Positions 5,459-49,944 of a stretch of 64,000 bases of DNA are shown piece after piece. The notes beneath the pieces are model-generated. The model was not told where the DNA came from. It saw only the letters and a program-made list of their open reading frames with translations, and searched no databases. Made by a program: the position numbers and the translations under genes. The stretch spans positions 5,030-69,029 of the forward strand of contig DATKML010000024.1 in assembly GCA_035541875.1 (NCBI GenBank), in the 5' to 3' direction. This stretch comes from Candidatus Binataceae bacterium. GTDB taxonomy: Bacteria; Desulfobacterota; Binatia; Binatales; Binataceae. Numbering within the stretch: the first letter of the stretch is position 1; each line of letters opens with the position of its first letter.

Positions 5459-6469
5459 ATGAAGACCAAGAAGATGGGACGGACGGGACTCAAAGTCTCC
5501 GAGATTTGTCTCGGCACGATGACCTTTGGGATGCAGTGCGACGAACCGACCAGCTTTGCAATTATGGACGCCGCCGTGGAGAACGGTGTTGATTTCTTCG
5601 ATACCGCCGACGGCTATCCGATGGGCGGGACGTTTGCGACCCTTGGGCGCACGGAGGAGATCGTGGGCAAGTGGCTCAAAGGGAGGCGCGATAAGATCGT
5701 GCTGGCGACGAAATGTTGGGTGCCGATGGGCAAAGAGCCCAATAATCGCGGGCTCTCGCGCAAGCATATCTTCGATGCTATCGAGGCCAGCCTGCGCCGT
5801 CTCCAGACTGATTACATCGATCTTTATCAGGCGCATTCGCCGGATCCCGATACGCCGCTCGATGAGACGCTGCGTGCCTATGACGACCTGGTCCATCAGG
5901 GCAAGGTTCGTTACATCGGATGCTCGAATTTCAAAGCCTGGCTGCTCGCGAGCGCCCTCTGGATCAGCGATAAAGAGGGGCTTGCGCGCTTCGATTGCGT
6001 CCAGCCGCGCTACAATATCCTGTTCCGCGAAATCGAGAATGAGGTGCTGCCGCTGTGCAATAACTGCGGCGTCGGTGTAATCGCCTACAATCCGCTCGCA
6101 GGTGGCTTCCTTACCGGCAAATACTCGGCCGATTCAAAGGCTCCGCCGGAGAGCCGCTTCGGCTTCATCAAGGGGCCGGCAAGCGACCTCTATCACAAGC
6201 GTTACTGGCAGGATGCGCAGTTCGCGGCGGTGGATCATCTGCAGCAGTTCTTCAAGCCGCGTGGTAAGTCGCTGACGCAGGTTGCGATCGCGTGGGTGCT
6301 GGCGCAGCCAGACATCACGTCCGCGATTCTGGGCGCGACGTCGGCAGCGCAGCTGCAGCAATCACTGCCTGCCACCGAGCTTACGCTCGACAAGGAAGAG
6401 ATCGATTTCTGCAACGACATCTGGTACCGGCTGCCGCGTCTGAGCGATCCGCTGGTGGCAACGCGATGA
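5459..6469 (+). CDS. Aldo/keto reductase
   Basis: MKTKKMGRTGLKVSEICLGTMTFG is an AKR N-terminus. The ATG at 5459 is in the same frame as the long track ORF starting at 5156, whose upstream extension overlaps the divergent P450. Confidence 0.85.
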   Translation: MKTKKMGRTGLKVSEICLGTMTFGMQCDEPTSFAIMDAAVENGVDFFDTADGYPMGGTFATLGRTEEIVGKWLKGRRDKIVLATKCWVPMGKEPNNRGLSRKHIFDAIEASLRRLQTDYIDLYQAHSPDPDTPLDETLRAYDDLVHQGKVRYIGCSNFKAWLLASALWISDKEGLARFDCVQPRYNILFREIENEVLPLCNNCGVGVIAYNPLAGGFLTGKYSADSKAPPESRFGFIKGPASDLYHKRYWQDAQFAAVDHLQQFFKPRGKSLTQVAIAWVLAQPDITSAILGATSAAQLQQSLPATELTLDKEEIDFCNDIWYRLPRLSDPLVATR

Positions 6470-6485
6470 GGTCAGGTCAGTAGGA

Positions 6486-9400
6486 ATGGATTCTCGACGA
6501 ATACTAATCGCCAATCGCGGCGAGATTGCGATCCGCGTGATGGAAGCGGCGGTCGAACTCGGCCTGACGACGGTCGCGGTCTTTTCCGAAGACGACGCCA
6601 AGTCGTTGCATACGATTCGCGCCGACGAAGCGTATCAGCTCAACGGATCAGGTCCGGCTGCTTACCTCGACGGTGAGCAGATAATCGCACTGGCGAAAGC
6701 GCATAATTGTGCTGCGATTCATCCGGGGTACGGTTTTCTCAGCGAGAATGCAGATTTCGCGCGACGCTGCGCCGATGCGGGCATCCTTTTTGTAGGCCCT
6801 CGTCCCGAATTGCTCGAACTCTTCGGCGACAAGGTACGGGCGCGGCTCTTCGCGCAGGAGTGCGGCATCCCGGTTATCGAGGGCGCCGCAAATGCCGTAA
6901 CCCTCGATGAGTTGAAATCATTCTTCGACGCCGCGCCGCCCGGACTGGGGGTCGTGATCAAAGCGGTCGCAGGTGGCGGCGGTCGCGGGATGCGCGTGGT
7001 TACGCGGCGCGAGGATTTGGATCAGGCGTTCCAGCGATGCCAATCAGAAGCGCGCGCCGCCTTTGGCCGCGGCGATGTCTACGCCGAACATTTCATGCCC
7101 TCGGCGCGGCACGTTGAGGTCCAGATTCTGGGTGACCGCAGTGGTCGCATCACCCATCTGTGGGAGCGCGAGTGCACCATCCAGCGGCGCCATCAGAAGC
7201 TGATCGAGATCGCGCCGAGTCCCGGCATTACAACGGCCGTGCGATCGAAGCTGCTCGATGCGGCGGTGAAGATCGCTCAGTACGCACGCTACGAGACGCT
7301 CGGCACCTTCGAATTTCTGGTTAATTCAAAGGGGGGTGATGATGCGCGGTTCGCGTTTATCGAGGCGAACCCGCGTCTGCAGGTCGAGCATACGGTTACG
7401 GAAGAGGTAACCGGCGTCGATTTGGTACGGGCGCAGCTTGACCTCGCATTCGGCAAATCACTTGGAGAGGTCGGTCTCGAAACGCCTGAGGTACGGCGCG
7501 CCGAAGGGTACGCGATTCAGATGCGGATCAACGCCGAATCGATGGCTCCCGATGGATCGCCAAAACCGGCGCAGGGCACGATCAATCTCTTCGAGCCGCC
7601 CTCGGGGCGAGGTGTGCGGGTCGATTCGGCAGCCTACTCCGGCTACGCGACGAATCCGCGCTTTGATTCTCTGCTGGCGAAGCTGATCGTGCATTCGCCG
7701 ACGTCGCGCTTCGAAGATGCGGCCGCTAAGGCTTATCGCGCCCTATGCAAATTTCGTATCGAGGGTGTCGCGACCAATCTCGGCTTTCTACAGGCCCTCC
7801 TGAAGCATCAGGCTTTCATCGATCACCACGTCCATACCGGCTTTATCGATGAGCAACTCGCAGAGCTCTCGGAAGCCGCCAAGGAGAGCCATCGCCGATT
7901 GTACTTCGGACGCGTCGCGACGCCGCAGATAGTCGGTGCGAAGATCGACGCGATCGATCCCTTGGCCGTGCTCGTTCACGGCAAATCGCAAGCTACGGAT
8001 GGAGACACCACCGTTGGTGTTGTTGCCCCGAGCATAGCCACGCTCCCCGCAGTCGAAGGGCCGGAAGGTACGATCCCCGTAGCCGCACCGATGCAGGGAA
8101 CAATCGTCTCGATCGATGTGACCGAAGGCACTTCCGTGACGCCCGGACAGCAACTGGCGGTGATGGAAGCGATGAAGATGGAGCACGTCATCGCGGCGCC
8201 GGTCAGTGGAATCGTGCGATCGGTGACGATCGCCAAGGGCGATACGGTGGCGGAGGGACATCCGCTCGTGTTTATCGAAGAGCGCGCAGTCGACTCTGGA
8301 AGCGTCGTCACAGAGGCCGACCTCAACCTGGAGGTGATTCGGCCTGACCTCGCTGAAGTGATCGAGCGACACGAGATAGGACTCGATGCGGCGCGACCGG
8401 AGGCCGTTGCGCGTCGCCGAAAGACGGGGCAGCGCACGGCGCGCGAGAATCTCGCGGAGCTTTGCGACCCCGGCTCGTTCGTTGAGTACGGGCCATTAGG
8501 CGTCGCCGCCCAGCGCCGTCGCCGCACGATGGACGATCTCATCCGCAATACTCCGGCGGATGGCCTGGTCACCGGCCACGCGACGATTAACGCCGATCTC
8601 TTCGGACCCGAACGCGCTCATACCGTGGTGCTGGCCTATGACTTCACAGTGCTGGCCGGCACGCAGGGCCATCTGAACCATCGTAAGAAGGATCGGATGT
8701 TCCAACTCGCGCGCGAATTGAGGGTGCCTCTCGTACTGTTTGCCGAGGGCGGGGGAGGGCGACCGGGCGATACCGACGGCGATTTCAGTTCGCGCACTTT
8801 TTTCGATTTTCCGCGCTTGAGTGGCCTCGTGCCGATGGTCGGCGTCGTGTCGGGTCGATGCTATGCGGGTAATGCTTCGCTGCTCGGATGCTGTGACGTG
8901 GTAATTGCGACGCGCAACTCGAATATCGGAATGGGCGGCCCTGCAATGATCGAGAGCGGTGGTCTCGGGGTTTTTCGTCCCGAGCAGATCGGACCGCTGA
9001 GCGTGCAGATTCCAAGTGGCGTCGTGGATATCGCCGTCGAAGATGAAATCGAAGCGGCGCACGTTGCGCGCAAGTATCTCTCGTATTTTCAGGGCGCCGT
9101 GAAGGATTACGAATGCGCGGATCAGCGGATGCTGCGCAAGGCGATTCCCGAAAATCGTCTACGTGCGTATGACATCCGCAACGTGATCGCGACGCTGGCC
9201 GATACCGACTCGGTGCTCGAACTGCGGCCGCACTTTGGCCGCACTATTATCACCGCATTCATTCGTATCGACGGCCGCCCGATTGGACTGGTGGCGAACA
9301 ACCCGATGCATCTGGCGGGAGCGATTGATAGCGATGGTGCCGACAAGGCTGCGCGCTTTATCGTGCTCTGCGACGCGTTCGATATACCGCTGCTCTATCT

Positions 9401-38344: not shown

Positions 38345-38383
38345 ACGGGCGGTTAGCTCAGCGGTAGAGCATCGGCCTTACAA
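38345..38383 (+). repeat. attL: 5'-half copy of tRNA-Val (39-bp direct repeat of the intact tRNA-Val at 49868-49906)
   Basis: ACGGGCGGTTAGCTCAGCGGTAGAGCATCGGCCTTACAA is identical at both sites. The left copy lacks the 3' half of the anticodon stem and the T arm, so it is not a functional tRNA. Confidence 0.8.
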
Positions 38384-38397
38384 TCGGATACGTCATC

Positions 38398-38427
38398 CTA
38401 TCTGGCGTTATCTAGGGCTATCTGGCT
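38398..38427 (+). repeat. Three tandem 10-bp repeats (CTATCTGGCG / TTATCTAGGG / CTATCTGGCT) just inside attL, candidate integrase arm-type sites
   Basis: Direct repeats read from the sequence, positioned within 15 bp of the att core on the element side. Confidence 0.4.
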
Positions 38428-38471
38428 AGCAAAAACGGGCCTTTTCTCGATTTGAGATTACGTCGGATTAC

Positions 38472-39296
38472 CTACGGTTCGCTCGAACTGGGCACTGAAC
38501 TGGGCAGAGGAAGCCGTTGCCTGCCGACTTTCAGCGTTGGTGATGACCTCTTGGAGCGGCCTCGCCGAGAGTTTTCTAGTGAGGAAAACACAGCGGCATC
38601 TAGGACACATGGGTATACCCTACACGCTTCGCACAACTCGCGAATACTTTTTAGTACAAATTTATAAAAATTTGGATCGGCGAGCGCGGCAGCGGTGATT
38701 TTAATCGGATAATATAGTTCCTCGTTCAGCCATCTTGTCACGCGACTGTCTAGTGGTATCTCATATCTGGTCAAATGCAATTCTTGCAAGACGTTCCTAG
38801 ACTGTTTGGGTCCGAATCCACGCAGATGACGAGCGATGTAATCGGCTACTTGCTCCTCAACTTGCCAGGAGACCAGCGAGGTTAGTCGATTGCATCGTTC
38901 AAGAATTTGATCTCACGCGTTGTCCTTTCGCAACCTATGCCAGTTTTCAGCTAGGTCCGATGGGATTTTGCGTTTGAACCGTTTCAAGTTGTGGTCTTCA
39001 AAGACCTGCTTGATAAACTCTTCGACGTTTTCCTCTAGCCCAATAGCCGCATAGCTGAGTGGAAATGGCTGCTGTTTGGAAAACAGAGTAACCGCACTCT
39101 CTGGTCCCGAATCTTGAAGCGTAGTAAGCCGCATCTTTACCAGAACTTCCCAAAATCGCTCGCGTGTAACCTCCGCCTTGTTGTCGACGACGTTCATATG
39201 TTGCCGTTCTATGACCAAGAGCGCTTCGGCCTGAGCTGTTACTAGGTTATGGACGTTGTCCAAATCGGCTTGTTCTATGACGAATTGAAGTTTCAT
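38472..39296 (-). pseudogene. Ogg2-family N-glycosylase/DNA lyase (HhH-GPD) interrupted by a single in-frame TGA
   Basis: Track ORFs 38913-39332 and 38472-38789 share a frame and are separated only by TGA at 38913-38915. Continuous translation gives ...KRFKRKIPSDLAENWHRLRKDNA*DQILERCN...LRGFGPKQSRNVLQELHLTRYEIPLDSRV... with a helix-hairpin-helix and catalytic Asp, alignable to archaeal-type Ogg2. The 3' tail runs into repeat DNA near attL. Confidence 0.5.
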
Positions 39297-39394
39297 TTCA
39301 AATTGTCTCCTCAATGTGCGGTGCCGATGCAACTCAAAAACTCTGTAACCTTCATCTCTTCGTCTGCTATCGCGTCCAAAATGTACAACCGGTC

Positions 39395-40141
39395 CTAGGA
39401 TCTCGCGCGTACCCTAGCGTCAACAATCCTCAGAAGATGATTTGCGAGTAAAACAATCTCTAGAGCTTCGGCGGGATCGTCGAGATTTACATCGCGGTGA
39501 GAATGCGGATTTTTATACGAACCGATGGCGCCCGCGAAGAGATTAGCGCGCGCCTCCTTCTCTCCTTGCTCGACCGACGAATCGGTGAGCGCGCCAGTTT
39601 TGGGGTCGAAAGCCTTTCTCATGAGAGTCACGCCGAGTTGGTCGTTGCCAAGACTGGCGGCCTCGCGAACGGCAACTTCCACCGCCTTCATCGCGACAAA
39701 CACCGCCACATCGTATTCGCCTCGCAGAAAAGCTTTCCAGACTGAGTCGTATATCTTTGGCTGGAGAATTTCGCGAGGGAGTAGCTTTGAAGTCCTGAAT
39801 TCCGAGAATTGGGCTCTCGTTGTGATTTTTCGGGCACGGCGGCTGAGCCGCATATTGGCGCTTTGACCCATATCCGGTACAGCGAGTCCCTGCGCCTTCA
39901 ACCATGCCCACGCTTCAGAGAATGCCAAGGTAACTTCCGGCCATGACGGTTCCGGGTACGGTACTGCGACGAAACCGCTTTGAATTCGCCTCCTAAGATC
40001 GAAAGTTGATTCTTGAACTGAAGAGTTTGGAAAGTGGTTCTGCCACAGAAGGATCAATGTTTCTCCGAGTTCCTCGGGTTCCATGGCGAGGAGGATCTTC
40101 TCGTCTTGGATTTTTCGGCATACTTCGTCAAATAGGTCCAC
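39395..40141 (-). CDS. Hypoth_Ymh (TIGR02391) HEPN-type domain protein, Abi-like
   Basis: The C-terminal ~110 aa (LQPKIYDSVWKAFLRGEYDVAVFVAMKAVEVAVRE...LFAGAIGSYKNPHSHRDVNLDDPAEALEIVLLANHLLRIVD) match the conserved Ymh family. N-terminal ~130 aa unassigned. Confidence 0.6.
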   Translation of the reverse strand: MDLFDEVCRKIQDEKILLAMEPEELGETLILLWQNHFPNSSVQESTFDLRRRIQSGFVAVPYPEPSWPEVTLAFSEAWAWLKAQGLAVPDMGQSANMRLSRRARKITTRAQFSEFRTSKLLPREILQPKIYDSVWKAFLRGEYDVAVFVAMKAVEVAVREAASLGNDQLGVTLMRKAFDPKTGALTDSSVEQGEKEARANLFAGAIGSYKNPHSHRDVNLDDPAEALEIVLLANHLLRIVDARVRARS

Positions 40142-40327
40142 GGCCTCAGCATAGTATATTAAGCGCCCAACAGATGCCTTGTTCGCCGTCGGGCCGAGAG
40201 CGGCTTTCGTAGCATCGGCCCGTTTAGCCGATGACCTGGAAAAACTCTAATCAGGTAAAAGCCTCTTAAAGGCCAGTGCCCAATCGCTGGCCACTCTCAT
40301 CATAGGCACTCTTAGCCGTAAAGATCG

Positions 40328-40356
40328 AAAAAACCCCGGCAGGGTTTCTACCGGGG
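40328..40356 (-). terminator. Rho-independent terminator after the zinc-finger gene (minus strand)
   Basis: CCCCGG...CCGGGG stem with a T-run on the minus strand, directly after the stop at 40379. Confidence 0.55.
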
Positions 40357-40378
40357 TTCTAGGTGGAACCAGATGGGC

Positions 40379-40642
40379 TCAGGCAGCAGCAACCGTCGGG
40401 GTCGTAGCCTTGGCGGCGCGGCGCGCCTTTTGAGTTTCAGCCGCCACTTGCGCCTGATCCGCTGCGACCTTGGAGGCGTGCTCGGCAACCGCGCGATCCA
40501 GTTCACGCTTTTCGGCCTTCGCGCGGCGACGATCCTTGGCGCAATCCAAGCAATGCTGGGAAATGTCATACACGCGAGTGTTCTTGGCCGTCCGCAGATG
40601 GCCGCGTTGGCAATGGGTGGTTGCCCGTTTCCCGTCGCTCAA
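40379..40642 (-). CDS. Phage-type small zinc-finger protein (HNH-like Cys/His motif)
   Basis: THCQRGHLRTAKNTRVYDISQHCLDCAKDRRR resembles the CxxGH...N...CxxC small HNH-like proteins of temperate phages, with a basic C-terminal tail. Confidence 0.5.
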   Translation of the reverse strand: MSDGKRATTHCQRGHLRTAKNTRVYDISQHCLDCAKDRRRAKAEKRELDRAVAEHASKVAADQAQVAAETQKARRAAKATTPTVAAA

Positions 40643-41023
40643 CCGCGCTGCCGGGTTGTCCTTCGCTGGTGGGACAGCCTTGGCCTTCCTACGACGGCCC
40701 TTCGTCGTGGGTTAGGCGGCAACCGGGGTCTGCTGCGGCTCATGCTGGGTTTCGACCGTTGGCGTCGCCTCGGCTACGGGTTCCGGCGTCGGACCGATGG
40801 GCGTCGCTGGCAAACTGGGCGTGATCGCCTCGATGGCGGGCTGCGGGTTTGTGATTTGGTTCTGGGGTTTGCGTGATTTTACCATGTGCGTGACCTCCTG
40901 ATGCTGTGTGTTATCCGTGAGTGAACGCACTAGAGCAAGAACCAAGCGTTGGGTTTTCGCAGGAGGGGGAGTCGGAAGGCGAAAAGATTTCTAGTGCATT
41001 AGACGCGCCGCTGGTTAAACTAC

Positions 41024-41569
41024 TTGCTAATGGGGCGGCGTAAAGCGAAATTCACAACGACACTATTCCTAACCGGGATCGCGCTCAGCGGGAGCGGATG
41101 TATGACTATGATCGAACATCACCGCCGGGCGACCATCGAGAACAACGATCTCGCGGCGCGCAAAGCCTGCCTCGACCTTCCCACAGAGCAGATTTCCGAT
41201 TGCCTCGCGCAGGCCAAAGCGGCCAACGATCAGGCGGTGGCCGACGAATTGAAATTCGAGCACCACGTTGAGGTGACGCGCGAAGTCGTCGGCGGGTTGG
41301 CTGGCGGCCTGTCACAGGGCGCGCAATCGTTCGCGCAATCACGGCAGAACGTGATCGACACCCAACAACGACTCGACGAATCGTTCAACTCCAGCGGCGG
41401 GATGCGAATCGATCCACCACCACCGCCCGATCTGCCGACGTTCAACGGCGGACGGCCGGTTCAGGTGGGCGATCCTGTTCCTGATCGTCCGGGGTGGGTT
41501 CACGGACCCAATAACACCGAGGTGCCCTTACCTCCCGAGCCTGCGCCAGTTGGTACTTTCGGCCAGTAG
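41024..41569 (+). CDS. Hypothetical secreted protein or lipoprotein with a Pro-rich C-terminus
   Basis: Signal peptide ending LSGSGC (imperfect lipobox). Pro-rich tail PPPPPDLPTF...PLPPEPAP. Confidence 0.45.
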   Translation: MLMGRRKAKFTTTLFLTGIALSGSGCMTMIEHHRRATIENNDLAARKACLDLPTEQISDCLAQAKAANDQAVADELKFEHHVEVTREVVGGLAGGLSQGAQSFAQSRQNVIDTQQRLDESFNSSGGMRIDPPPPPDLPTFNGGRPVQVGDPVPDRPGWVHGPNNTEVPLPPEPAPVGTFGQ

Positions 41570-41604
41570 GCCGCGCGTTATCGGCTTTATCTGTTTGCGA
41601 GTGC

Positions 41605-41647
41605 AAAAAGGTTGCCGGGGCGCAGGCAGGAGAACCGACGCCCCGGC
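41605..41647 (-). terminator. Rho-independent terminator (minus strand) after the small ORF 41688-41891
   Basis: GCCGGGGCG...CGCCCCGGC stem with an A-run on the plus strand (a T-run on the minus strand). Confidence 0.5.
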
Positions 41648-41687
41648 GTGGTCGCGTCGAACGAGGATGATCGCGCGACCGAGATTG

Positions 41688-41891
41688 TTACGCCGTAAGC
41701 GCGACGATGTTCCATCCCTGTGACAAATACGACGCGAGCTGGTTATTGCCCAGCTTGGCCGTCGTTGAGTCGAATGTGTATTGACCGCTGCTCGGCGCAA
41801 CCTCGACGCCGCTGTACCAGATCGGATTCAAACTGTACGTCGCGGGCGGAGCCAACGTGACGGACGTATAATTCGGATTCGGTGAAGCCAT
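41688..41891 (-). CDS. Small hypothetical protein (67 aa)
   Basis: Followed by its own terminator. Composition is Ser/Thr/Asn-rich and non-repetitive. Confidence 0.35.
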   Translation of the reverse strand: MASPNPNYTSVTLAPPATYSLNPIWYSGVEVAPSSGQYTFDSTTAKLGNNQLASYLSQGWNIVALTA

Positions 41892-41943
41892 AATTTTTCT
41901 CCCTTTGAAGCGCCGCGATGGCGCGATTGAGTAGCATCGACAT

Positions 41944-42348
41944 CTATTTCAATAGACCCATTTGATCGCGTTCGGACGCGCTGAACTCCGCGCGGAGGCA
42001 TTTCTGGAGCGCCCTCGCGGCCTCCGCGTCGGACGTATAGGTTCCCTGCGCTGCCTTCTGGATGACCCGTTTGAGCCGGGCGTTGCGAGCGTTCCGGGTT
42101 GCGGTTCCGGCATGGATCACGGCGACCCCGGCGGCCATGCGAATCTTCTCGGCCCGTTCATCGGCATCCAACCCACCCAGCCCGGATATTGATGCCGATT
42201 TGGTGATCCGCCCGAGATGGCCGGGATTCGATTGGCCTGTACGTTGTGGAACCAGCCGGGCACGGGCTTCCGCGAATGAACGCCGCGAATCGCGCTTCTC
42301 TAAAGCCGTGAAGCCGCTCGGATTATCCGGGCGATCAACCAGCACCAC
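41944..42348 (-). CDS. Hypothetical protein (island cargo; start uncertain, frame stays open upstream without an ATG)
   Basis: A 134-aa ORF. In-frame upstream extension reads TVHFVGIDQFNRVVLVDRP, so the true start may be a GTG. Confidence 0.35.
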   Translation of the reverse strand: MVLVDRPDNPSGFTALEKRDSRRSFAEARARLVPQRTGQSNPGHLGRITKSASISGLGGLDADERAEKIRMAAGVAVIHAGTATRNARNARLKRVIQKAAQGTYTSDAEAARALQKCLRAEFSASERDQMGLLK

Positions 42349-42471
42349 GCGGTTGAATTGATCGATGCCAACGAAATGAACCGTGCCGCCGCGGCCTTGG
42401 CGAGGGCGGCCTCGTTCTCAATCTCAAACGTCAGCCCGTCCGTCGTGGTAATGACGCGGCCCTCGGTCCGT

Positions 42472-42687
42472 TTAATCTGGTGGTACTGCATTTGCTCGTT
42501 CCTTTTCATCGATCAGGTCGGTGCCGTGATCGACCAGCAAGATGTTTTTGATCTCGGGGTGTTCTCGGTGAAAAATTGCCTCGGCCTCGTCGCGATTGGC
42601 GGCCAAGATCCCGATGTAAGGCGGCCACGTCAGCCAAACACCGCCGCCGGGGCGGTGCCATAGATGGGCGGTCAAAATCCGGCTCAT
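42472..42687 (-). CDS. Hypothetical protein (about 71 aa from MSRILTAHLWHRPGGG...)
   Basis: The distal part of track ORF 42472-42816 looks protein-like. The Arg/Gly-rich upstream extension looks non-coding. Confidence 0.3.
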   Translation of the reverse strand: MSRILTAHLWHRPGGGVWLTWPPYIGILAANRDEAEAIFHREHPEIKNILLVDHGTDLIDEKERANAVPPD

Positions 42688-42859
42688 CCCTTCGGCTCCT
42701 CGGTCCGTTCCACGTCGGATGATTCCTTCGCGGCAGCCACCCGCTGCTCGATTTCCGTGGGGCTTAGTTCCCGCACGGGTCCGTTCTTGCGCTGAAATCG
42801 ACGCGTGAACCGGCACCGGTAAATTCCGTTATTCGCTAATTGCCGGGGCGATCGTGGTG

Positions 42860-43093
42860 TCACGCGACCGCTCCTTGCGGCCCGGCGGCCAACGCCTTGA
42901 GCCAACGCGCACGACGAGGCGCAGCCAATTCACCGACCAGCCAATCCACAAGGGACGGCAACGCGAAGGCGTTGAATCGGGCGTTGATAGGCGTAACCGA
43001 AGGGCCACGGGATTGGTGGCGTAACCGCCATAACCCAACCCGCGTGATCCCGAGAATGCTAGTTAAATCGGCCGTCGATGCGATTGCGTCCAT
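42860..43093 (-). CDS. AlpA/excisionase-family helix-turn-helix regulator
   Basis: MDAIASTADLTSILGITRVGLWRL is a canonical AlpA-type HTH. Confidence 0.6.
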   Translation of the reverse strand: MDAIASTADLTSILGITRVGLWRLRHQSRGPSVTPINARFNAFALPSLVDWLVGELAAPRRARWLKALAAGPQGAVA

Positions 43094-43457
43094 CGTGACA
43101 AGATGTTAGCAACGTCGTTCCATTCCTTGAAGGGGCGGCTCGATATCCGGGCGGCCCCGAGAAAACCGAGGCACACAAACGCCGTGTGTGCCCGTTTCCA
43201 ACCCGCCTTGGCATCCTTGCCCGAGGCTCGTTCCCGCAATTCGGCCAGCGTAGCCAGCCATCGAAGACCGTCGCGTTCCGGCAACCTCTGTCATCGCTAA
43301 AAAACCTATCGCTAACCCTGTCTGCCGGTTAGCCTTTGGCGATAATGGAACTCACACCGGTTCACCAGTTCGGCGATTGGTACGCCAAGCGAGAAGACTT
43401 GGCCTATTACGTCAACGACGAAACCTCGAGCGGCTCTAAGGTTCGCCAATATGAGCG

Positions 43458-44249
43458 ATGATCGCGGCAACGCCCGGCACGCTAATCGTTGGGTGTTCGG
43501 CGGCGTCGGCGATGCAGGTTTACGTTGCTGATTGTGCCAACCGGCACGGCCTACCGGGCATTGTGTATGTTGCCGGGCGCAAGAAACCGACGCCATCAAC
43601 CAAATACGCCATGACGGCCGGGGTTGATGTTCGGCCCGTAAGTCCGGGCTACCTCACAACCGTTCGAGCGAGAGCGCGCGCCGAGGCGCTAAGAATCGGC
43701 GGGTGTGTCGGGTGGAGCGAATCGACGGCCAAAGAGGACACCGCAGCCCAGTGCGCCAACATTCCGGACGATGTGAAGCGTATCGTGGTGCCGACGGGAT
43801 CGGGGGCTACGCTGAAGGGGATCGTTGATGGCATGAAGCGCCTCGGGCGCAGCGTGCCGATTCTGGCCGTTGCCGTTTCCGGTATGTACGAAGACGTTGA
43901 TGGTGTAGAGGCGATCCACCTAACCCGCGATTACGACGACGAAGAGGCCGCCATATTACCCGACGGAAGCTATCTCGATCCCTATTACGCCGCAAAGGCG
44001 CTCAAGTTCGTCCGCCCCGGCGATTGTTTGTGGGTATCGGGTAGGCGCTCGATCTTGGCGATCAAGAAAATCACGCGCACCAAAATAGAACTCCTGCGCA
44101 AGAACCCAACGTTAGGACGTTGGCGTGATTCCAAATGCACCACGTTGCTATCGGGGGCTCAGCAGCGGGCCGACAATCGATCCGGGGCCGAACCGCTGCT
44201 GGACGGTTCCGCGAATACTTGTGGCCATCATATCGAGGGCCTTGGTTGA
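43458..44249 (+). pseudogene. Fragment of a fold-type II PLP enzyme (ACC deaminase / D-cysteine desulfhydrase family) lacking the N-terminal PLP-lysine region
   Basis: KRIVVPTGSGATLKGIVDGMKRLG matches the glycine-rich loop and LDPYYAAKALKFVRPGDCLWVSGG matches the LDPVYTGKA...HTGG motif. The N-terminal ~100 aa are missing. The 3' end overlaps the convergent terL by ~100 bp. Confidence 0.45.
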
Positions 44250-45896
44250 CGCGGGCGCTGGATCGGCTTCCTTCATAGGCGGTCCGTCCGGTTCCGGGCA
44301 CGGACCCCGATGCCAGAACCTCGCGCCGCCGTCGGTGAGGTAGTTTTTCTCCATCACGGGCCGTTTGCATTTGCCGCAGATACGTTCTCGGCGGATCAGG
44401 TTTTGCACGATCTCCGATTCCCGCCGCTCGACGCCGGGTACGCGCAGCCCAACCGCCACGGCGGCCCACTGAGATGCGTCCATGCCCCGTTGCCCTTCTT
44501 GGACCGCACCCAGCGCGGCCTGCGCCAACGCAACAATCACGTCGATTTTATGCGACGTTTTCTCCTTCGCGATGCGCCACCCACGGGTGGTTTCCAAGGC
44601 GACACAGCGCGAGATCGATAGGCGCATATCGGCGTCGGGGTACAGGATCAAATTCGCGCCCTTGATGATTTCGTACAGGTTGGAACTGGCTTCCGTGAGG
44701 TTCGGCACCGACTGCGGAAATTCGATCATCGGCAACCCGTTCCCGCGAAGGCGCTGCGCTACGGCCACAAGCTGGTACGGATCATATCGCACCTCGCGGA
44801 TGCTGAACCGGGTTCGCATCTCCAACAGGGTGCGCTCGATGGTCGCCTCGAAGTCGAGCGGATCGTCCGGCGATGGCTGGAAAATCCGATGCCAAACGAG
44901 CCGCACCTTCTTGGCGTCGCGATCCCAGCCGCAAACCACGATCGCGGTGCTATCGCGTTTGACCGATGCGTCAACGCCAACCCAGACGGGAAGCCGTTGA
45001 TCGGCCAGGATGGGATGTAGCGCCGAATCGACGCAAGCGTCCCACCACTCGATGGGTACGAACTCCGATTCTGACGTCACCCACCTGTTTTCAACGTGGC
45101 GAAGGTAGGCGTTTTGCCTAGTAGATTGGCGCATCTGTTCGCGCCACGCATCGGTTTGCCACGGAGCCGGACCGGTATGCGTCCAATACGCCAACATTCC
45201 GGGCTGCTCGTACAAATCCGGGCCGACCACCTTCCCGGCGATCCCGCGTTTGTAGAGCCCTTCGAGCAACTCGGATTCGCCCTCGAAGCCTGCATAGGTG
45301 ACGGTTAAGCGCCCGGATACCTTGCGCGTGGGTGAAAACACGCCCTCATCCCACAACCTATGCGAGGCCTCCGATGCGAACGCCCACAATTCGTCCCACA
45401 CGGTTAGCGTCGGGTTCGCCCCTGCGAAGCCCTTGAAATCGTTCGCGACGGCCGAGATGAACGCGCCGGTCGAAATGAACGTGATCCGATCCGCCGTTAC
45501 CTTGGCGGAGTTTCGCAGCAGGGGCGACGCTTGAACGATCCTGGCGGCGGCTTGGAACACGCGACCAACGGCCTGATCGTAATCGTTCGCGAGGGCGTAT
45601 ACCTCGGCGTAGGGGCCGCCGATCACCACGGCGACGTAGATTGCGACCATCGCGGCTAGGGCGGTTTTGCCGGATTTCTTCGGCGCTGAGTAGAGCATCT
45701 CCGGGAACGGCAAACGGCCGTCCGGCGTCAAAACGAGAGCGCGGCGCAGGAACTCGATTTCGGCAGCGTACAACTCGAAGGGTGATCCCGTTTCCGGGTT
45801 GATCGAAACCTCATGGACGAAGGCTACCGGATCTGCGCGCCAACGAGCCGCAGCCTTGGCCTGTTCACTCGATGGGTTCGGCTTGCTTGATGGCAC
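44148..45896 (-). CDS. terL: Phage terminase large subunit
   Basis: Walker A-like APKKSGKTALAAM, Walker B TVWDELW, RNase H-like nuclease region VWVGVDASVKRD, and a C-terminal Cys cluster CGKCKRP...HRGPCPE. Confidence 0.75.
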   Translation of the reverse strand: MPSSKPNPSSEQAKAAARWRADPVAFVHEVSINPETGSPFELYAAEIEFLRRALVLTPDGRLPFPEMLYSAPKKSGKTALAAMVAIYVAVVIGGPYAEVYALANDYDQAVGRVFQAAARIVQASPLLRNSAKVTADRITFISTGAFISAVANDFKGFAGANPTLTVWDELWAFASEASHRLWDEGVFSPTRKVSGRLTVTYAGFEGESELLEGLYKRGIAGKVVGPDLYEQPGMLAYWTHTGPAPWQTDAWREQMRQSTRQNAYLRHVENRWVTSESEFVPIEWWDACVDSALHPILADQRLPVWVGVDASVKRDSTAIVVCGWDRDAKKVRLVWHRIFQPSPDDPLDFEATIERTLLEMRTRFSIREVRYDPYQLVAVAQRLRGNGLPMIEFPQSVPNLTEASSNLYEIIKGANLILYPDADMRLSISRCVALETTRGWRIAKEKTSHKIDVIVALAQAALGAVQEGQRGMDASQWAAVAVGLRVPGVERRESEIVQNLIRRERICGKCKRPVMEKNYLTDGGARFWHRGPCPEPDGPPMKEADPAPASTKALDMMATSIRGTVQQRFGPGSIVGPLLSPR

Positions 45897-46326
45897 GGTC
45901 CTTCTCCTCGGCAGCGGCGTTCAACGCGGCAAACTCACCGGCCAGATCCCTTCCCTTGTCGGACAACCCGGCTAGCTGCCTACGGGCTGCCGGGGTTAGC
46001 CCTAGTTCGCGGGCAATGGTTAGCTGCGCCGCCCGCAGCGCCCGATATTCGCCGAGGAGTTTCCGGGGTTCACCCTGATCGGTCGTCGGACCCTCGTCGC
46101 GCAGGCGTCCGTAGATAACGGTGGCGAGGATTTCAAGCTCGCACCATGCTCGGGCAGCCGGGCCGTCGCTATCGACCAACCACGGGCAGGCGCGGCGCAT
46201 CTTACCGAGCAGGTGATAAACCCGACGATCCCGGACGGCAACACCCTTCTTCAAGGCGACATATAGGCTTCTGGTGTTGTTCTTCGCCATTACAAACCCC
46301 GTGCGGATCACTGTAACCAGCGTCAA
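45865..46326 (-). CDS. terS: Phage terminase small subunit, P27 family
   Basis: ARELGLTPAARRQL and the overall layout match P27-family TerS. It overlaps the terL start, and the true start may be MAKNNT (46290). Confidence 0.6.
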   Translation of the reverse strand: MTLVTVIRTGFVMAKNNTRSLYVALKKGVAVRDRRVYHLLGKMRRACPWLVDSDGPAARAWCELEILATVIYGRLRDEGPTTDQGEPRKLLGEYRALRAAQLTIARELGLTPAARRQLAGLSDKGRDLAGEFAALNAAAEEKDRAIKQAEPIE

Positions 46327-46535
46327 CCAAAGCTGTAAGCAGCGCCGCCCGAAGCTGGTCGCAAGGCGTAGATTATCGAAGGGATGGCCAGCGACTGGGC
46401 ACTGGCATCAAAAAGCCTTTGACTTTATTGAGGTTTTTCGGCGTTATCGGTTTTGATGGCCGATGTACTGTTGAACGGGGCTTTGACAAGATAGCCGGAC
46501 CCCACAAATCCTCTGATTGCGCCATTCTCCCGTTC

Positions 46536-46712
46536 ATGAAGCAGCATCACACCGAGCGCGAACAGCGCTTTCTCGATCTTGCTAGTACCCTAGCCAACGA
46601 GTTCGCGCCTCGCTCCGCCAAGTACGATACCGAAGAAGCTTTTCCCTTAGAGAATTACGCCCAGTTGAGAATCTCTTCATTGACTCGGGTTGTTCATTCA
46701 TGCCAGATCTGA
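46536..46712 (+). pseudogene. N-terminal remnant of an acyl-CoA dehydrogenase
   Basis: MKQHHTEREQRFLDLASTLANEFAPRSAKYDTEEAFPLENYAQLR is a typical ACAD N-terminus, then degenerates and terminates after ~58 aa. Confidence 0.45.
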
Positions 46713-46760
46713 TGCCGCTAGTCTTTACGTACTCCCGTTCGCTGCGAGAGGAGGATTCTA

Positions 46761-47297
46761 ATGAGCCCGGAAACCATTCACGACAAGTTACGGCTCTACC
46801 CCGTGATTGCGTCAATAGTCTTCTTCTGCTTGGTAAAGTCGGCGTTTGCGGCCGGGCCCGTAACGTCGCCATTCACTGCTACAGGTTCTGGCGTGAGTGC
46901 GGGCGCTCTAAGCACATGTTCACAGTGCACTACTGGCCACACGTGTATATGCGTGCCTCTTAGCGGTACGGGCAAAGCTAGCGTGATTGGCACAGTGAAT
47001 TGGACGACAACGGTGGTTCTCGACGAAACCAACCCAGAGGCAGGTGACTGCATCGATACGTACGGCACGGTAACGCTAACGGCCAAGAGCAGCTCCAAAA
47101 ACGCTCTTTCGATAGATTATCATGGTTTTGAGTGCTCGGTAGGCACCAATTACACCCTCAACGGAACGTACGTGATCAATCCCGCCAACTCTACGGGAAA
47201 ATTCCTAAACTACAAAGGCTCGGGGAACCTAGCCGGCAGCGAGGATTCCAACAGCGACATTTTGGGTAACCTAAGCGGTACAATCCAAACGCCGTAA
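46761..47297 (+). CDS. Secreted Cys-rich hypothetical protein
   Basis: Signal peptide (cleavage after SAFA), Cys/Thr/Gly-rich mature region, locally lower GC. Confidence 0.5.
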   Translation: MSPETIHDKLRLYPVIASIVFFCLVKSAFAAGPVTSPFTATGSGVSAGALSTCSQCTTGHTCICVPLSGTGKASVIGTVNWTTTVVLDETNPEAGDCIDTYGTVTLTAKSSSKNALSIDYHGFECSVGTNYTLNGTYVINPANSTGKFLNYKGSGNLAGSEDSNSDILGNLSGTIQTP

Positions 47298-47315
47298 ACC
47301 CATCCACCCACCGAG

Positions 47316-47346
47316 CAAAAGCGTAAGCCGCGCTACCGATGGGCGC
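47316..47346. terminator. Bidirectional hairpin terminator between convergent genes
   Basis: Perfect inverted repeat GTAAGCCGCGC...GCGCGGCTTAC with T-rich flanks on both strands. Confidence 0.55.
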
Positions 47347-47357
47347 GGCTTACTTTC

Positions 47358-47741
47358 TTATGAACACAACGCCGGAGCCGAGTCGCTGCTCCTGTACCAT
47401 AGCCAGCGCGCGCCAAGATTTTCACCTGAGTCAAAAACGGAGTCGACAAACTTGGTAGTTGCTAAGTACGGCTTTTCTATAATCGTGATCGAAAACTGCC
47501 AAATCGTCCCTTCGTCCAGCGCGTCCATCAACTTATTGGCTATCTCCGCGACTTTCGACGCGGGCTGAATCTCGTTCGCATGTATTTCGGGCACTCCGAG
47601 CTCGGCCCTATAACCGTTCAGAACGGAACTGACGATTGGCTCGATATCGTCAACTGACAGAATCGCTCCTTGGCGATAGAAGGCAGGAGGAGCAAAGATG
47701 TTCTTCCCGCTGTGCCCACTCTCGTCCGCGTAAATGTGCAT
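47358..47741 (-). CDS. DUF3800 family protein, short form (127 aa)
   Basis: N-terminal MHIYADESGHSG (the IYxDESG motif) and ELGVPEIHANEI (the EIHAxE motif). Full-length family members are usually about 220-260 aa. Confidence 0.55.
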   Translation of the reverse strand: MHIYADESGHSGKNIFAPPAFYRQGAILSVDDIEPIVSSVLNGYRAELGVPEIHANEIQPASKVAEIANKLMDALDEGTIWQFSITIIEKPYLATTKFVDSVFDSGENLGARWLWYRSSDSAPALCS

Positions 47742-48174
47742 TAAGGTCCTCTAAAAACGAACTGAATTCAAAATGATCGGCCATTGGAGCTGGGCCCGTT
47801 AGTAACCTATTGGGCGCTCCTCCCCAAGCAAGGCTGAGAATTAGCGCTTCCGTGCCGTCAAGGAGCCGGATCCGATACGTCCTCTCGGTCGTGGTAGCGC
47901 TTGAGATAGATCAGTACGTCTTGGTGAACGCGAGTGACGCCTTTACCCTTACGCTTGATAAGCGCGGCCGCCCTCATCGGTGCTGACAAAAAAGCCGTCG
48001 CCAAAGTTGATACCTGAACAAGCTCGCAACCTGCGAGCATAAAATTCACCCGCATTTCGACTTCGCGCTTTTCGACTTCGGGCTTGGGGAATTTGTAGGG
48101 ACGACGCCCCTAAGGGTAATAGAAACTCGATTTTCCTCCATCCCTGACGCTACAGTTCTGTCTAGGAGATTAAC

Positions 48175-48591
48175 ATGAAGCTAGCGCTGATTCACAATCG
48201 CGACGATCAAGGGTATTGCCGGGCATGCGAAGCCCTATCCGAGGCGTTCGGTGTCGGATTCTGCCGAACCGATGGATCGCACGTCAGGTTAACCGAGCTG
48301 GTTGCCGAATCCGATCTCGCGCAAACCCTATGCAATGAAACCCGGCTGATGGCAATCCTACGGCTAACCTCGCTCGCCTCGAATCTGGCCGCCGGGATGG
48401 CCGAGGATCAGCCTCGATCATCGGAACCCGCGCCCCTGATCGATGCAGCGCAAATGGCGAAGCACCTGAACTTACCGGAGTCGTGGGTGCGTAGCGAACA
48501 GCGCGCAGGGCGAATTCCGTTTGTCCAAGCCGGGCGATACGTGCGTTTCAACGCCGCCGAGGTTGAGGCGGCCATCCGGCAGCGGAGCTAA
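48175..48591 (+). CDS. xis: Excisionase-family DNA-binding protein
   Basis: C-terminal LIDAAQMAKHLNLPESWVRSEQRAGRIPFVQAGRYVRFNAAEVEAAI is a MerR-like excisionase HTH. It lies directly upstream of int, with AGGAGA RBS. Confidence 0.6.
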   Translation: MKLALIHNRDDQGYCRACEALSEAFGVGFCRTDGSHVRLTELVAESDLAQTLCNETRLMAILRLTSLASNLAAGMAEDQPRSSEPAPLIDAAQMAKHLNLPESWVRSEQRAGRIPFVQAGRYVRFNAAEVEAAIRQRS

Positions 48592-48682
48592 CCAAATGGC
48601 AAAGATCCAAAAACATCACGGCGACGGATGCGATCAGAAGAATTGCGACTGCCCGTACAGGCTCGATTATTGACCGCTCGGT

Positions 48683-49831
48683 ATGAACGGCCCACGCAAA
48701 CGGATCGAGTTCCCCACGAAGAAGGCTGCCGAGAAGTTCCTTGCGGAGACGGCACACAAGGCATCACGGGGCGAATACATCGATCCCGGCAAGGTGCCAC
48801 TATTCACCGTGGTGGCGGAGCAATGGTTTCGCTCCAAGGTAGATTTCCGGCCGTCTCACGTTGTCGATCTCCGAGGCCGCCTCGACAAGCATTTGATCCC
48901 GGCGTTCGGATCGCGGCGGCTCGATGAGATCCGTGTGATTGATATCGAGAAGCTCCGAGATGATCTACGCGACAACGGTCACGCGCGCACCACGGTTAAC
49001 CGCGCTGTCCAGATCGTGAACGCTATCTTCAAGTTGGCTATTCGGCAGGGGCGTTGCGCTATCAATCCAACGGAGCGGGTAGATCGGATCAAACAAACCG
49101 CAGCCGAGATCCGGCTCGACGACGATGGCGACGATCCGACGCCGGATGACATCCTGAACCCGGACGAGATTCGACGGTTGCTCGACGCTGCTATTCCGGG
49201 GTTTGATCGCAGGTTGTTCATGATGGCCTTCGTTTCCGGTGCACGCCAAGGCGAACTATTCGCGCTTCAATGGACGGACATCGAGCTGCCCAAGGACGGC
49301 AGCGCAGCAGGGCGGATGCACATCAGGCGCACACTATCGTGGAGCCACCCCAAGGGCGAATCGCCGCGCCCACGATTCTATCCACCCAAAACCAAGGCAG
49401 GCCTACGATCCATCGAGATCCCACCTGGATTAGTTGCGGCCCTGAAGCGCTGGAAGCTCCAATGCCCGGCGTCGCCTATCGGGCTTGTGTTCCCACGATC
49501 AGATGGGCAGCCTATGTACCGTGAATTTATGCTCCGTCGGCGTTTCTATCCGGCCCTCAACCGCGCGCGCTTGCGCCGCGTTCGATTCCATTCCCTGCGC
49601 CATTCATGCGCGTCCGCTATGATCGCGGCAGGGGCGTCGATCACCGAGGTCCAGCATCATCTCGGACACGCATCCCCGGCTATGACGCTGGGCACCTATT
49701 CCCATTGGTTCCGAAACGCCGAGGGTAGCGGGGCGGTCCAGCGCTTGAGCCGGATGGTCGCCGAGGGGAACTGGGCAGAAACTGGGCACTTGAATGAATC
49801 GGATTCTGCCGAAGAGGCGGTTTCAGCTTGA
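48683..49831 (+). CDS. int: Tyrosine-type site-specific integrase
   Basis: C-terminal catalytic region HSLRHSCASAMIAAGASITEVQHHLGHASPAMTLGTYSHW (R..HxxR..Y). It ends 38 bp before tRNA-Val. Confidence 0.88.
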   Translation: MNGPRKRIEFPTKKAAEKFLAETAHKASRGEYIDPGKVPLFTVVAEQWFRSKVDFRPSHVVDLRGRLDKHLIPAFGSRRLDEIRVIDIEKLRDDLRDNGHARTTVNRAVQIVNAIFKLAIRQGRCAINPTERVDRIKQTAAEIRLDDDGDDPTPDDILNPDEIRRLLDAAIPGFDRRLFMMAFVSGARQGELFALQWTDIELPKDGSAAGRMHIRRTLSWSHPKGESPRPRFYPPKTKAGLRSIEIPPGLVAALKRWKLQCPASPIGLVFPRSDGQPMYREFMLRRRFYPALNRARLRRVRFHSLRHSCASAMIAAGASITEVQHHLGHASPAMTLGTYSHWFRNAEGSGAVQRLSRMVAEGNWAETGHLNESDSAEEAVSA

Positions 49832-49869
49832 AAAAAGCCTCGATAAATCGGAGGCTTAGCTGACTCGAC

Positions 49870-49944
49870 GGGCGGTTAGCTCAGCGGTAGAGCATCGGCC
49901 TTACAAGCCGAGGGTCGCAGGTTCGAAACCTGCACCGCCCACCA
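49870..49944 (+). tRNA. tRNA-Val (anticodon TAC)
   Basis: GGGCGGT acceptor stem pairing with ACCGCCC, D-loop AGCTCAGCGGTAGAGC, anticodon loop CTTACAA, T-arm GGTTCGAAACC, and an encoded CCA. The 5' half is the attR copy of the direct repeat. Confidence 0.9.

Follow-up and report, generated by a model that had tools for sequence, protein, structure and literature searches.

A Ymh (TIGR02391)-family gene with a recurrent N-terminal domain in a tRNA-Val island of Candidatus Binataceae: a candidate one-gene anti-phage family

Proteins of the Ymh family, collected as PF09509 in Pfam and as TIGR02391 in NCBIfam, have been placed in the HEPN superfamily by profile analysis, with the conserved Rx4-6H motif, and have been linked to restriction-modification (R-M) and abortive-infection contexts (Anantharaman et al. 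2013, PMC3710099). In this study, a gene of this family was investigated in a stretch of 64,000 nucleotides from Candidatus Binataceae bacterium (contig DATKML010000024.1), referred to throughout as the window, where it is carried at the attL end of an integrated island. We observed that the gene is an ordinary member of a known, experimentally unstudied TIGR02391/Ymh branch, which is a candidate one-gene anti-phage family. Our interpretation, held with moderate confidence, is that the product is a self-contained, single-gene conflict module in which a sensor-type N-terminal domain (N-domain) is joined to a Ymh HEPN RNase, that it probably serves abortive infection or superinfection exclusion, and that it is accessory cargo of the island. 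The gene and the parts of its product are the following.

39395..40141, minus strand: Ymh/TIGR02391-family gene of 248 amino acids (aa), GTG start, stop codon included; from the list of open reading frames (ORFs), hidden Markov model (HMM) matches, homologues and the AlphaFold2 model
39776..40141, minus strand: N-domain, aa 1 to ~122, helices plus a beta-hairpin at aa 87-99, winged-helix-like; from conservation and weak Foldseek matches
39416..39766, minus strand: C-terminal Ymh (HEPN-type) domain, aa 126-242, a helical bundle; from HMM matches and the domain model
39491..39514, minus strand: predicted active-site motif K210-N-P-H-S-H215-R-D217, the lysine variant of HEPN Rx4-6H; from sequence and conservation

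With reference to the closest described systems, the locus shares some characters with each of them and departs in others. Its C-terminal 115 aa match the TIGR02391/PF09509 family above the cut-offs, and the gene, like many members, is solitary and found in a mobile or defence location; the family usually displays RNPxxH, whereas the subfamily of the window protein displays KNPxSH, and other Ymh proteins (Leptospira, Hymenobacter, Halosimplex and Herpetosiphon) lack the winged-helix-like N-domain of this subfamily. AbiJ-type architectures follow the same logic, with a mostly helical N-terminal module of ~100-140 aa that is swapped between effectors, but here the HEPN domain is Ymh and not of the AbiJ family, and the N-domain has no Pfam match. 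In PMC10952713, PD-Lambda-3 appears among the phage-defence systems, with Vassallo et al. 2022 as its source, and a PD-(D/E)XK nuclease domain is ascribed to it. In PADLOC, weak matches over the Ymh domain were obtained for PD-Lambda-3_B (aa 135-243, E 9e-6, thus the C-terminal domain only) and for Aga_HEPN (1.3e-5); PD-Lambda-3 consists of a nuclease gene and protein B, whereas no PD-(D/E)XK neighbour was found at the window or homologue loci with PADLOC and Pfam. ApeA and the lactococcal AbiD, AbiF and AbiV are also one-gene HEPN systems with no antitoxin and presumed abortive infection, but they come from different HEPN families, to which the window protein has no HMM match, and have the canonical Rx4-6H and different N-terminal regions. 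The minimal HEPN bundle of the HEPN-MNT type II/VII toxin-antitoxin (TA) systems is likewise similar and is among the best matches by template-modelling (TM) score (1o3u, 1wol, 2hsb and 7bxo), whereas the window gene has no MNT partner, possesses an extra N-terminal domain and harbors Lys for Arg.

Residues 126-239 of the window protein match PF09509 Hypoth_Ymh (E 2.3e-26, 92.4 bits) and residues 126-242 match TIGR02391 (E 2.9e-18, 66.1 bits), exceeding the curated cut-offs of 25 bits and 39.45 bits, respectively. A sequence-only reading of this DNA had assigned the protein to Ymh/TIGR02391 and had proposed an HMM search; that search was run and bears the assignment out well above the cut-offs, and the peptides that the reading quoted, LFAGAIGSYKNPHSHRD and EALEIVLLANHLLRIVD, are found in the ORF. 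A protein search with the ORF returned 6256 homologues, the best 120 of which are 244-298 aa long and 50-63% identical, with query coverage mostly between 75% and 100%; since homologues were obtained at E 1e-89 and below, a chance ORF is ruled out. The PHROGs search gave a marginal match at most (E 0.022). The public NCBI entry P0001, "TIGR02391 family protein [Candidatus Binataceae bacterium]", which comes from a metagenome-assembled genome, is 100% identical over 229 aa, and its annotation begins at Met20 (229 aa). Because residues 4-19 are conserved among the homologues and an M-D-L start is common to 13-15 of them, the GTG at 40141 is a better start than Met20.

The window protein fits the family signature with which it was compared, an [R/K]-N-P-x-x-H loop followed by an A-x-HLL-R-x-D helix. 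Y-K-N-P-x-S-H-R-D is invariant in all 121 of 121 subfamily sequences, which are overall just 50-63% identical, and N211, P212, H215 and A226 are invariant even against the distant Ymh proteins of Leptospira, Hymenobacter, Halosimplex and Herpetosiphon. As the motif is invariantly of this form, the canonical HEPN arginine is a lysine in the subfamily, and the motif of the window reads K-x4-H (K210...H215), not literally Rx4-6H. The KNPxxH motif named in the sequence-only reading is present, but the replacement of the canonical HEPN arginine by lysine had not been remarked on. Among the N-domain-bearing proteins the motif column is K in 143 and R in five, and the same column is R (R-N-P-x-x-H) in distant Ymh proteins from Herpetosiphon, Leptospira, Hymenobacter and Halosimplex plasmids. 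Judging from these alignments, K and R are clearly positionally equivalent, and the KNPxSHRD loop is clearly under strong constraint. One protein, P0353 (343 aa), has the same N-domain, the canonical R (YRNPHSHRR) and an additional C-terminal Cys-rich, zinc-ribbon-like tail; as it carries R, K and R interchange within the lineage.

The domain-only AlphaFold2 model has a predicted local distance difference test (pLDDT) score of 90.4, and in both the full-length and the domain-only models the motif is predicted in the loop that joins the last two long helices (192-210 and 223-247). The PDB matches of the domain model with the highest TM scores (0.49-0.57) are the HEPN proteins 1ufb, 2hsb, 1wol and 1o3u, and 4nqf, 2q00, 7bxo and AbiV (9bj7) are also among its Foldseek matches. 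No solved Ymh structure was found by PDB sequence search with the single sequence, the full-length profile or the C-domain profile; the DNTTIP1 and TPR matches in these searches were set aside as noise. The HEPN assignment, which the sequence-only reading had also made, is supported through the profile work of Anantharaman et al. 2013 (PMC3710099), with weak structural support here.

Neither Pfam nor NCBIfam yielded a match to the N-terminal ~125 aa, even at E<=10, so the view that this part has no recognisable family stands. The accompanying suggestion of a new HEPN fusion does not: the N-terminal ~120 aa are present in all 120 homologues listed (best 120 of 6256), and the N-domain alone matches 199 cluster representatives at 50% identity (E<=1e-3), nearly always N-terminal in proteins of ~250 aa. 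The new-fusion reading was rejected, since at least 120 close homologues and ~200 such clusters share the same arrangement of two domains. The N-domain is marked by the conserved motif SEAWAWLxAQGLxVP...LSRRA, and the invariant residues of this half in the homologue alignment are E76, W80, L81, G85, L86, L99, S100 and R102. A structure prediction of the N-terminal region had been proposed, and the full-length AlphaFold2 model, built from a 35-sequence alignment, is confident (pLDDT 89.9); it displays the N-domain as helices plus a beta-hairpin at 87-99 and the C-domain as a helical bundle. The modelled N-domain resembles a winged helix. A Foldseek search of PDB and BFVD with the full model gave nothing below E 0.06, and its weak best matches in PDB are winged-helix proteins, namely GntR/FadR regulators, the ROQ domain and Brr2.

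The same N-domain was also found in front of a different effector. P0322, an N-domain cluster representative, harbors this domain followed by a CAP12/Pycsar-effector TIR domain, PF10137 (E 3.9e-38), and the N-domain HMM of the Ymh subfamily matches ~27 of the 120 TIR proteins listed with P0322 as query, all at the N-terminus, with E from 8e-33 to 7e-4. By BLASTP, the window protein is 30% identical to the TIR protein P0391 over 121 aa (E 4e-14), the SEAWAWL..QG..VP motif included.

P0322, P0391, P0394, P0415 and ~23 others: TIR proteins with the Ymh-subfamily N-domain (PF10137, CAP12/Pycsar-type)

Being fused both to Ymh and to CAP12/Pycsar TIR domains, the N-domain is exchangeable between effector classes, and its fusion to a TIR effector suggests that the C-terminal half of the Ymh protein acts as an effector too. 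Anantharaman et al. 2013 (PMC3710099) described this pattern, one N-terminal module common to unrelated conflict-system effectors, for the AbiJ N-terminal domains (NTDs): in their list, Ymh occurs with AbiJ-NTD1 and with AbiJ-NTD2, and these NTDs are also joined to TIR-like or deoxyribosyltransferase-like domains. By analogy with these shared fusion partners (Ymh and TIR-like), it is plausible that our N-domain is AbiJ-NTD1 or AbiJ-NTD2. We tentatively suggest, as a possibility of rather low probability, that the N-terminal 'EAWAWL' winged-helix-like module may be a dedicated infection sensor plugged into interchangeable suicide effectors: the lysine-variant Ymh HEPN RNase here, and a CAP12/Pycsar-type TIR NADase in the relatives.

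The 292 confirmed relatives in the species-genome collection are distributed across Acidobacteriota, Alpha-, Beta- and Gammaproteobacteria, Binatota, Nitrospirota and Planctomycetota. Relatives were also noticed on Streptomyces, Rhizobium and Methylococcus plasmids, tblastn with the N-domain matched six plasmid records, and gp29 of the temperate Burkholderia phage KS9 is a full-length homologue with 45% identity. Neighbourhoods were compared at ~80 species-genome loci by all-against-all clustering of the ORFs within 3 kb. No conserved partner gene was found, as no neighbour family occurs in more than ~15% of these loci, and no conserved adjacent antitoxin (type II, HEPN-MNT) was found in them or in the window. 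With no conserved neighbour and no sign of an RNA antitoxin, the gene is a solo gene, and the earlier statement that it has no antitoxin partner is upheld. Individual homologues lie in a CBASS island, and on plasmids beside TA and R-M genes or a ThiF/MPN cluster. Immediate neighbours, from Pfam and PADLOC, include an integrase at 10 of 79 loci and AbiEii at 5 of 77, as raw counts; RepB, HsdR, ZorD, DpdE, QatD and capP occur at one to three loci each, and the others are housekeeping genes. At those 5 of 77 loci (e.g. L009 and L071), the AbiEii nucleotidyltransferase toxin is directly upstream of Ymh, sometimes on the same strand, so that the gene repeatedly adjoins a second kind of abortive-infection module.

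The sole recurrent neighbour family is a Xer-like tyrosine recombinase of ~320 aa, present at 12 of the 80 loci and, in most of these, 9-58 bp downstream of Ymh on the same strand.

L008, L014, L015, L026, L058, L069, L074, L075 and L085: Ymh-recombinase loci, Ymh at ~6001-6750 and the recombinase directly after it; also L088:6-1705

DNA similarity between Ymh-recombinase loci of different phyla ends at the borders of the 1.7-kb pair, which suggests that the two genes move, or are selected, as one unit. The pair on a Methylococcus plasmid shows a 4-bp overlap and adjoins two TA pairs. It may be asked from this whether the protein is a maintenance factor of mobile elements, travelling with integrases and plasmids and penalising loss of the element by addiction or stabilisation. 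The conservation of the pair across phyla, the plasmid overlap beside the TA pairs and the residence of the window copy on an integrase-bearing island are in its favor. Against this, there is no antitoxin-like partner that would make loss lethal, ~85% of the copies have no adjacent recombinase, and several lie in plain chromosomal contexts, so that we regard a maintenance role as improbable.

Non-enzymatic relatives of HEPN proteins exist, such as the MtlR-type regulators. The Ymh protein could similarly be a non-catalytic, nucleic-acid-binding or regulatory protein, with an N-domain that binds DNA or RNA and a HEPN-like bundle that dimerises or binds a ligand, and it would then regulate the mobile element or the host. 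The Arg-to-Lys change of Rx4-6H throughout the subfamily, the lack of an antitoxin or partner gene, the many copies among housekeeping genes and the GntR/FadR-type regulators among the weak structural matches of the whole model would all suit such a role, and so would the 10-12 of 80 loci at which Ymh is directly upstream of, and apparently co-transcribed with, the tyrosine recombinase. The absolute conservation of K-N-P-x-S-H-R-D, His included, is by contrast what is expected of an active site; K is replaced by R in relatives, and in other proteins a TIR effector follows this N-domain. On this account, a regulatory role is considered unlikely, with some weight left to it.

Between the Ymh gene and attL lies a further cargo gene, which the sequence-only reading had offered as a possible Ogg2-like partner.

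38472..39332, minus strand: HhH/OGG-fold glycosylase-like pseudogene, in-frame TGA at 38913-38915

It forms a single frame of ~274 codons with the lowest GC content of the island (0.48-0.49), and no family match was obtained in Pfam, NCBIfam, PADLOC or PDB. Its homologues are stand-alone proteins of ~250 aa that span the stop position; a few bear the label 8-oxoguanine glycosylase or N-glycosylase/DNA lyase, and PF22175 is present in two of those listed. Given the internal in-frame TGA and the uninterrupted homologues, the gene is a pseudogene. A two-gene unit, with Ymh as toxin and this gene as partner or antitoxin, could be read from their common strand, the 62 bp between them and their GC, which in both is lower than in the rest of the island. 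The proposal does not survive comparison: the in-frame TGA recurs in an assembly from another sequencing run, a relative was detected by tblastn at 0 of 86 Ymh homologue loci, and no PADLOC, Pfam or NCBIfam link joins the two genes. As a conserved unit the partnership was rejected, on the in-frame stop, its absence at 86 of 86 homologue loci, the GC lower still than that of Ymh and the lack of a family match, and we hold it to be very improbable for the window as well.

The island itself is an 11.5-kb insertion (38389-49867) bracketed by copies of a tRNA-Val repeat, downstream of lon-hupB. Its main features, and those of the region upstream of the Ymh gene, are listed below.

38345-38388, plus strand: attL, the displaced 5' part of tRNA-Val, a 44-nt direct repeat, 39 nt of which are identical to 49868-49906
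49870..49944, plus strand: attR, the intact tRNA-Val(TAC), directly after the integrase gene
48683..49831, plus strand: island tyrosine integrase (PF00589 E 2.5e-20; phrog_1 E 7e-70)
48175..48591: HTH_17 excisionase-like protein, an island gene
45865..46326: TerS, an island gene
44148..45896: TerL, an island gene
40379..40642: small HNH-like protein, the island gene preceding the Ymh gene
40142..40378, minus strand: upstream non-coding (leader/promoter) region of the Ymh gene
~40328..40357, minus strand: intrinsic terminator of the preceding HNH gene, a predicted 10-pair stem including CCCCGGUAG/CUGCCGGGG, with a 5-nt loop and U6
40240..40290, minus strand, shared with 46383-46430, plus strand: element of ~50 nt, TGGCCAGCGAYTGGGCACTGGC...CTTTKAC, with an internal 7-bp inverted repeat

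The repeat spans the 5' end of tRNA-Val up to the anticodon loop, so that the island sits in the 5' half; the 5' half of the functional tRNA is consequently supplied by the island, and the displaced original half has been left after hupB. From the end of the integrase gene to the intact attR tRNA there are 38 bp. No capsid or tail genes were recognised among the island ORFs scanned with Pfam and PHROGs, and the island is a remnant of a prophage or else a satellite-like element in which the packaging genes alone are retained. The att repeats, the integrase and the phage-type genes confirm that the Ymh gene is cargo of an integrated element, and its GC of 0.53, against 0.60-0.64 for the island phage-type genes, fits later-acquired cargo. 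The gene had been described as lying just inside attL with its own upstream spacer; it does lie at the attL end, but ~1 kb inside, with the glycosylase-like pseudogene between, and the spacer is present but extends over 40142-40378 and not merely to 40327. An ORF of 263 aa at 43458-44249 (plus strand) was observed antisense to the 3' end of TerL, with 28 bits to PALP (pyridoxal-phosphate-dependent enzymes) against a cut-off of 35; it is called as a gene in the public assembly too, and it is doubtful whether it is real.

Compared with shuffled sequence, the region upstream of the Ymh gene has a more stable predicted fold (z = -3.6), and the HNH terminator occupies its 5' part; this strong intrinsic terminator makes the Ymh gene a separate transcription unit. 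The spacer has no tandem repeats (Tandem Repeats Finder) and no Rfam match even at E<=1, and thus nothing points to a type III RNA antitoxin. Both the Ymh gene and the ORF at 46761..47297 are preceded by the ~50-nt element in sense orientation, and the core of the element, ACTGGGCAC, is also found at 38486-38497 and 49780-49791, ~100 bp inside each att site. These copies could be operator or integrase arm sites; if so, the cargo gene would be tied to the regulation of the island.

The window copy departs from the subfamily at five positions of at least 90% conservation, H127Q and P12Q among them, and these two changes may matter for function or reflect relaxed selection. Together with the neighbouring pseudogene and the lack of recognised capsid or tail genes, they raise the question of whether the copy is decaying, functionally impaired cargo at the edge of the island. 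The ORF is, against this, full-length and retains all 48 of the 48 invariant columns of the 35-sequence alignment, the KNPxSHRD motif included, and its sequence is identical in three independent assemblies or samples. A decayed state is accordingly judged unlikely.

As for the single-gene conflict module, the comparisons above show its family, its two-domain layout, the conservation of the motif, the missing partner gene, the reuse of the N-domain with a TIR effector and its residence on mobile elements; we infer RNase activity, dimerisation, a trigger and a defence phenotype for the Ymh protein along the following lines. The winged-helix-like module of ~120 aa at the N-terminus would be the sensing or nucleic-acid-binding, autoinhibitory part, and the C-terminal Ymh HEPN domain would be a metal-independent RNase, whose putative active site would lie where the invariant K-N-P-x-S-H-R-D loop connects the last two long helices. 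By analogy with other HEPN enzymes, a composite site is probably formed across a dimer interface. Upon phage infection, the N-module would release the HEPN domain, which would then cleave RNA and stop growth, and this arrest may protect both the host population and the resident island from superinfection.

Several observations weigh against this interpretation. No experimental test of any TIGR02391/Ymh member was found in the literature. The canonical catalytic Arg is replaced by Lys, and the Foldseek E-values of the domain model to HEPN structures are non-significant (0.99-5.8). Many homologues stand alone between housekeeping genes with no defence neighbour, from which it follows that the protein cannot be constitutively toxic, and this solitary placement is equally compatible with a non-defence role. 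In the window copy itself, codon 127 (39761-39763) encodes Gln at a position that is His in 112 of the 119 subfamily members and also in distant Ymh proteins, this His being conserved family-wide in the L-H-P motif at the beginning of the Ymh domain; codon 12 (40106-40108) encodes Gln, whereas Pro is found in 113 of 119 members. Finally, a promoter scan upstream of Ymh gave no match, the scan having covered the sigma-70-type consensus only, which is uninformative for this phylum.

In summary, the window gene adds little on its own, as it is one more copy of a common, annotated family, and the prediction that Ymh is a HEPN nuclease serving conflict systems dates back to 2013. Its value lies in a compact, partner-less protein, in an N-domain common to TIR effectors, which suggests a sensor module, and in the Lys-variant HEPN motif. 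Characterising one member would provide annotation for thousands of genes and would probe how strict the Rx4-6H rule is. If the N-domain is truly an infection sensor shared between effectors, there would be a widespread family of candidate one-protein abortive-infection systems, spread over Acidobacteriota, Pseudomonadota, Binatota, Nitrospirota and Actinomycetota as well as a Burkholderia phage, and Lys would be able to replace the supposedly essential Arg of HEPN proteins.

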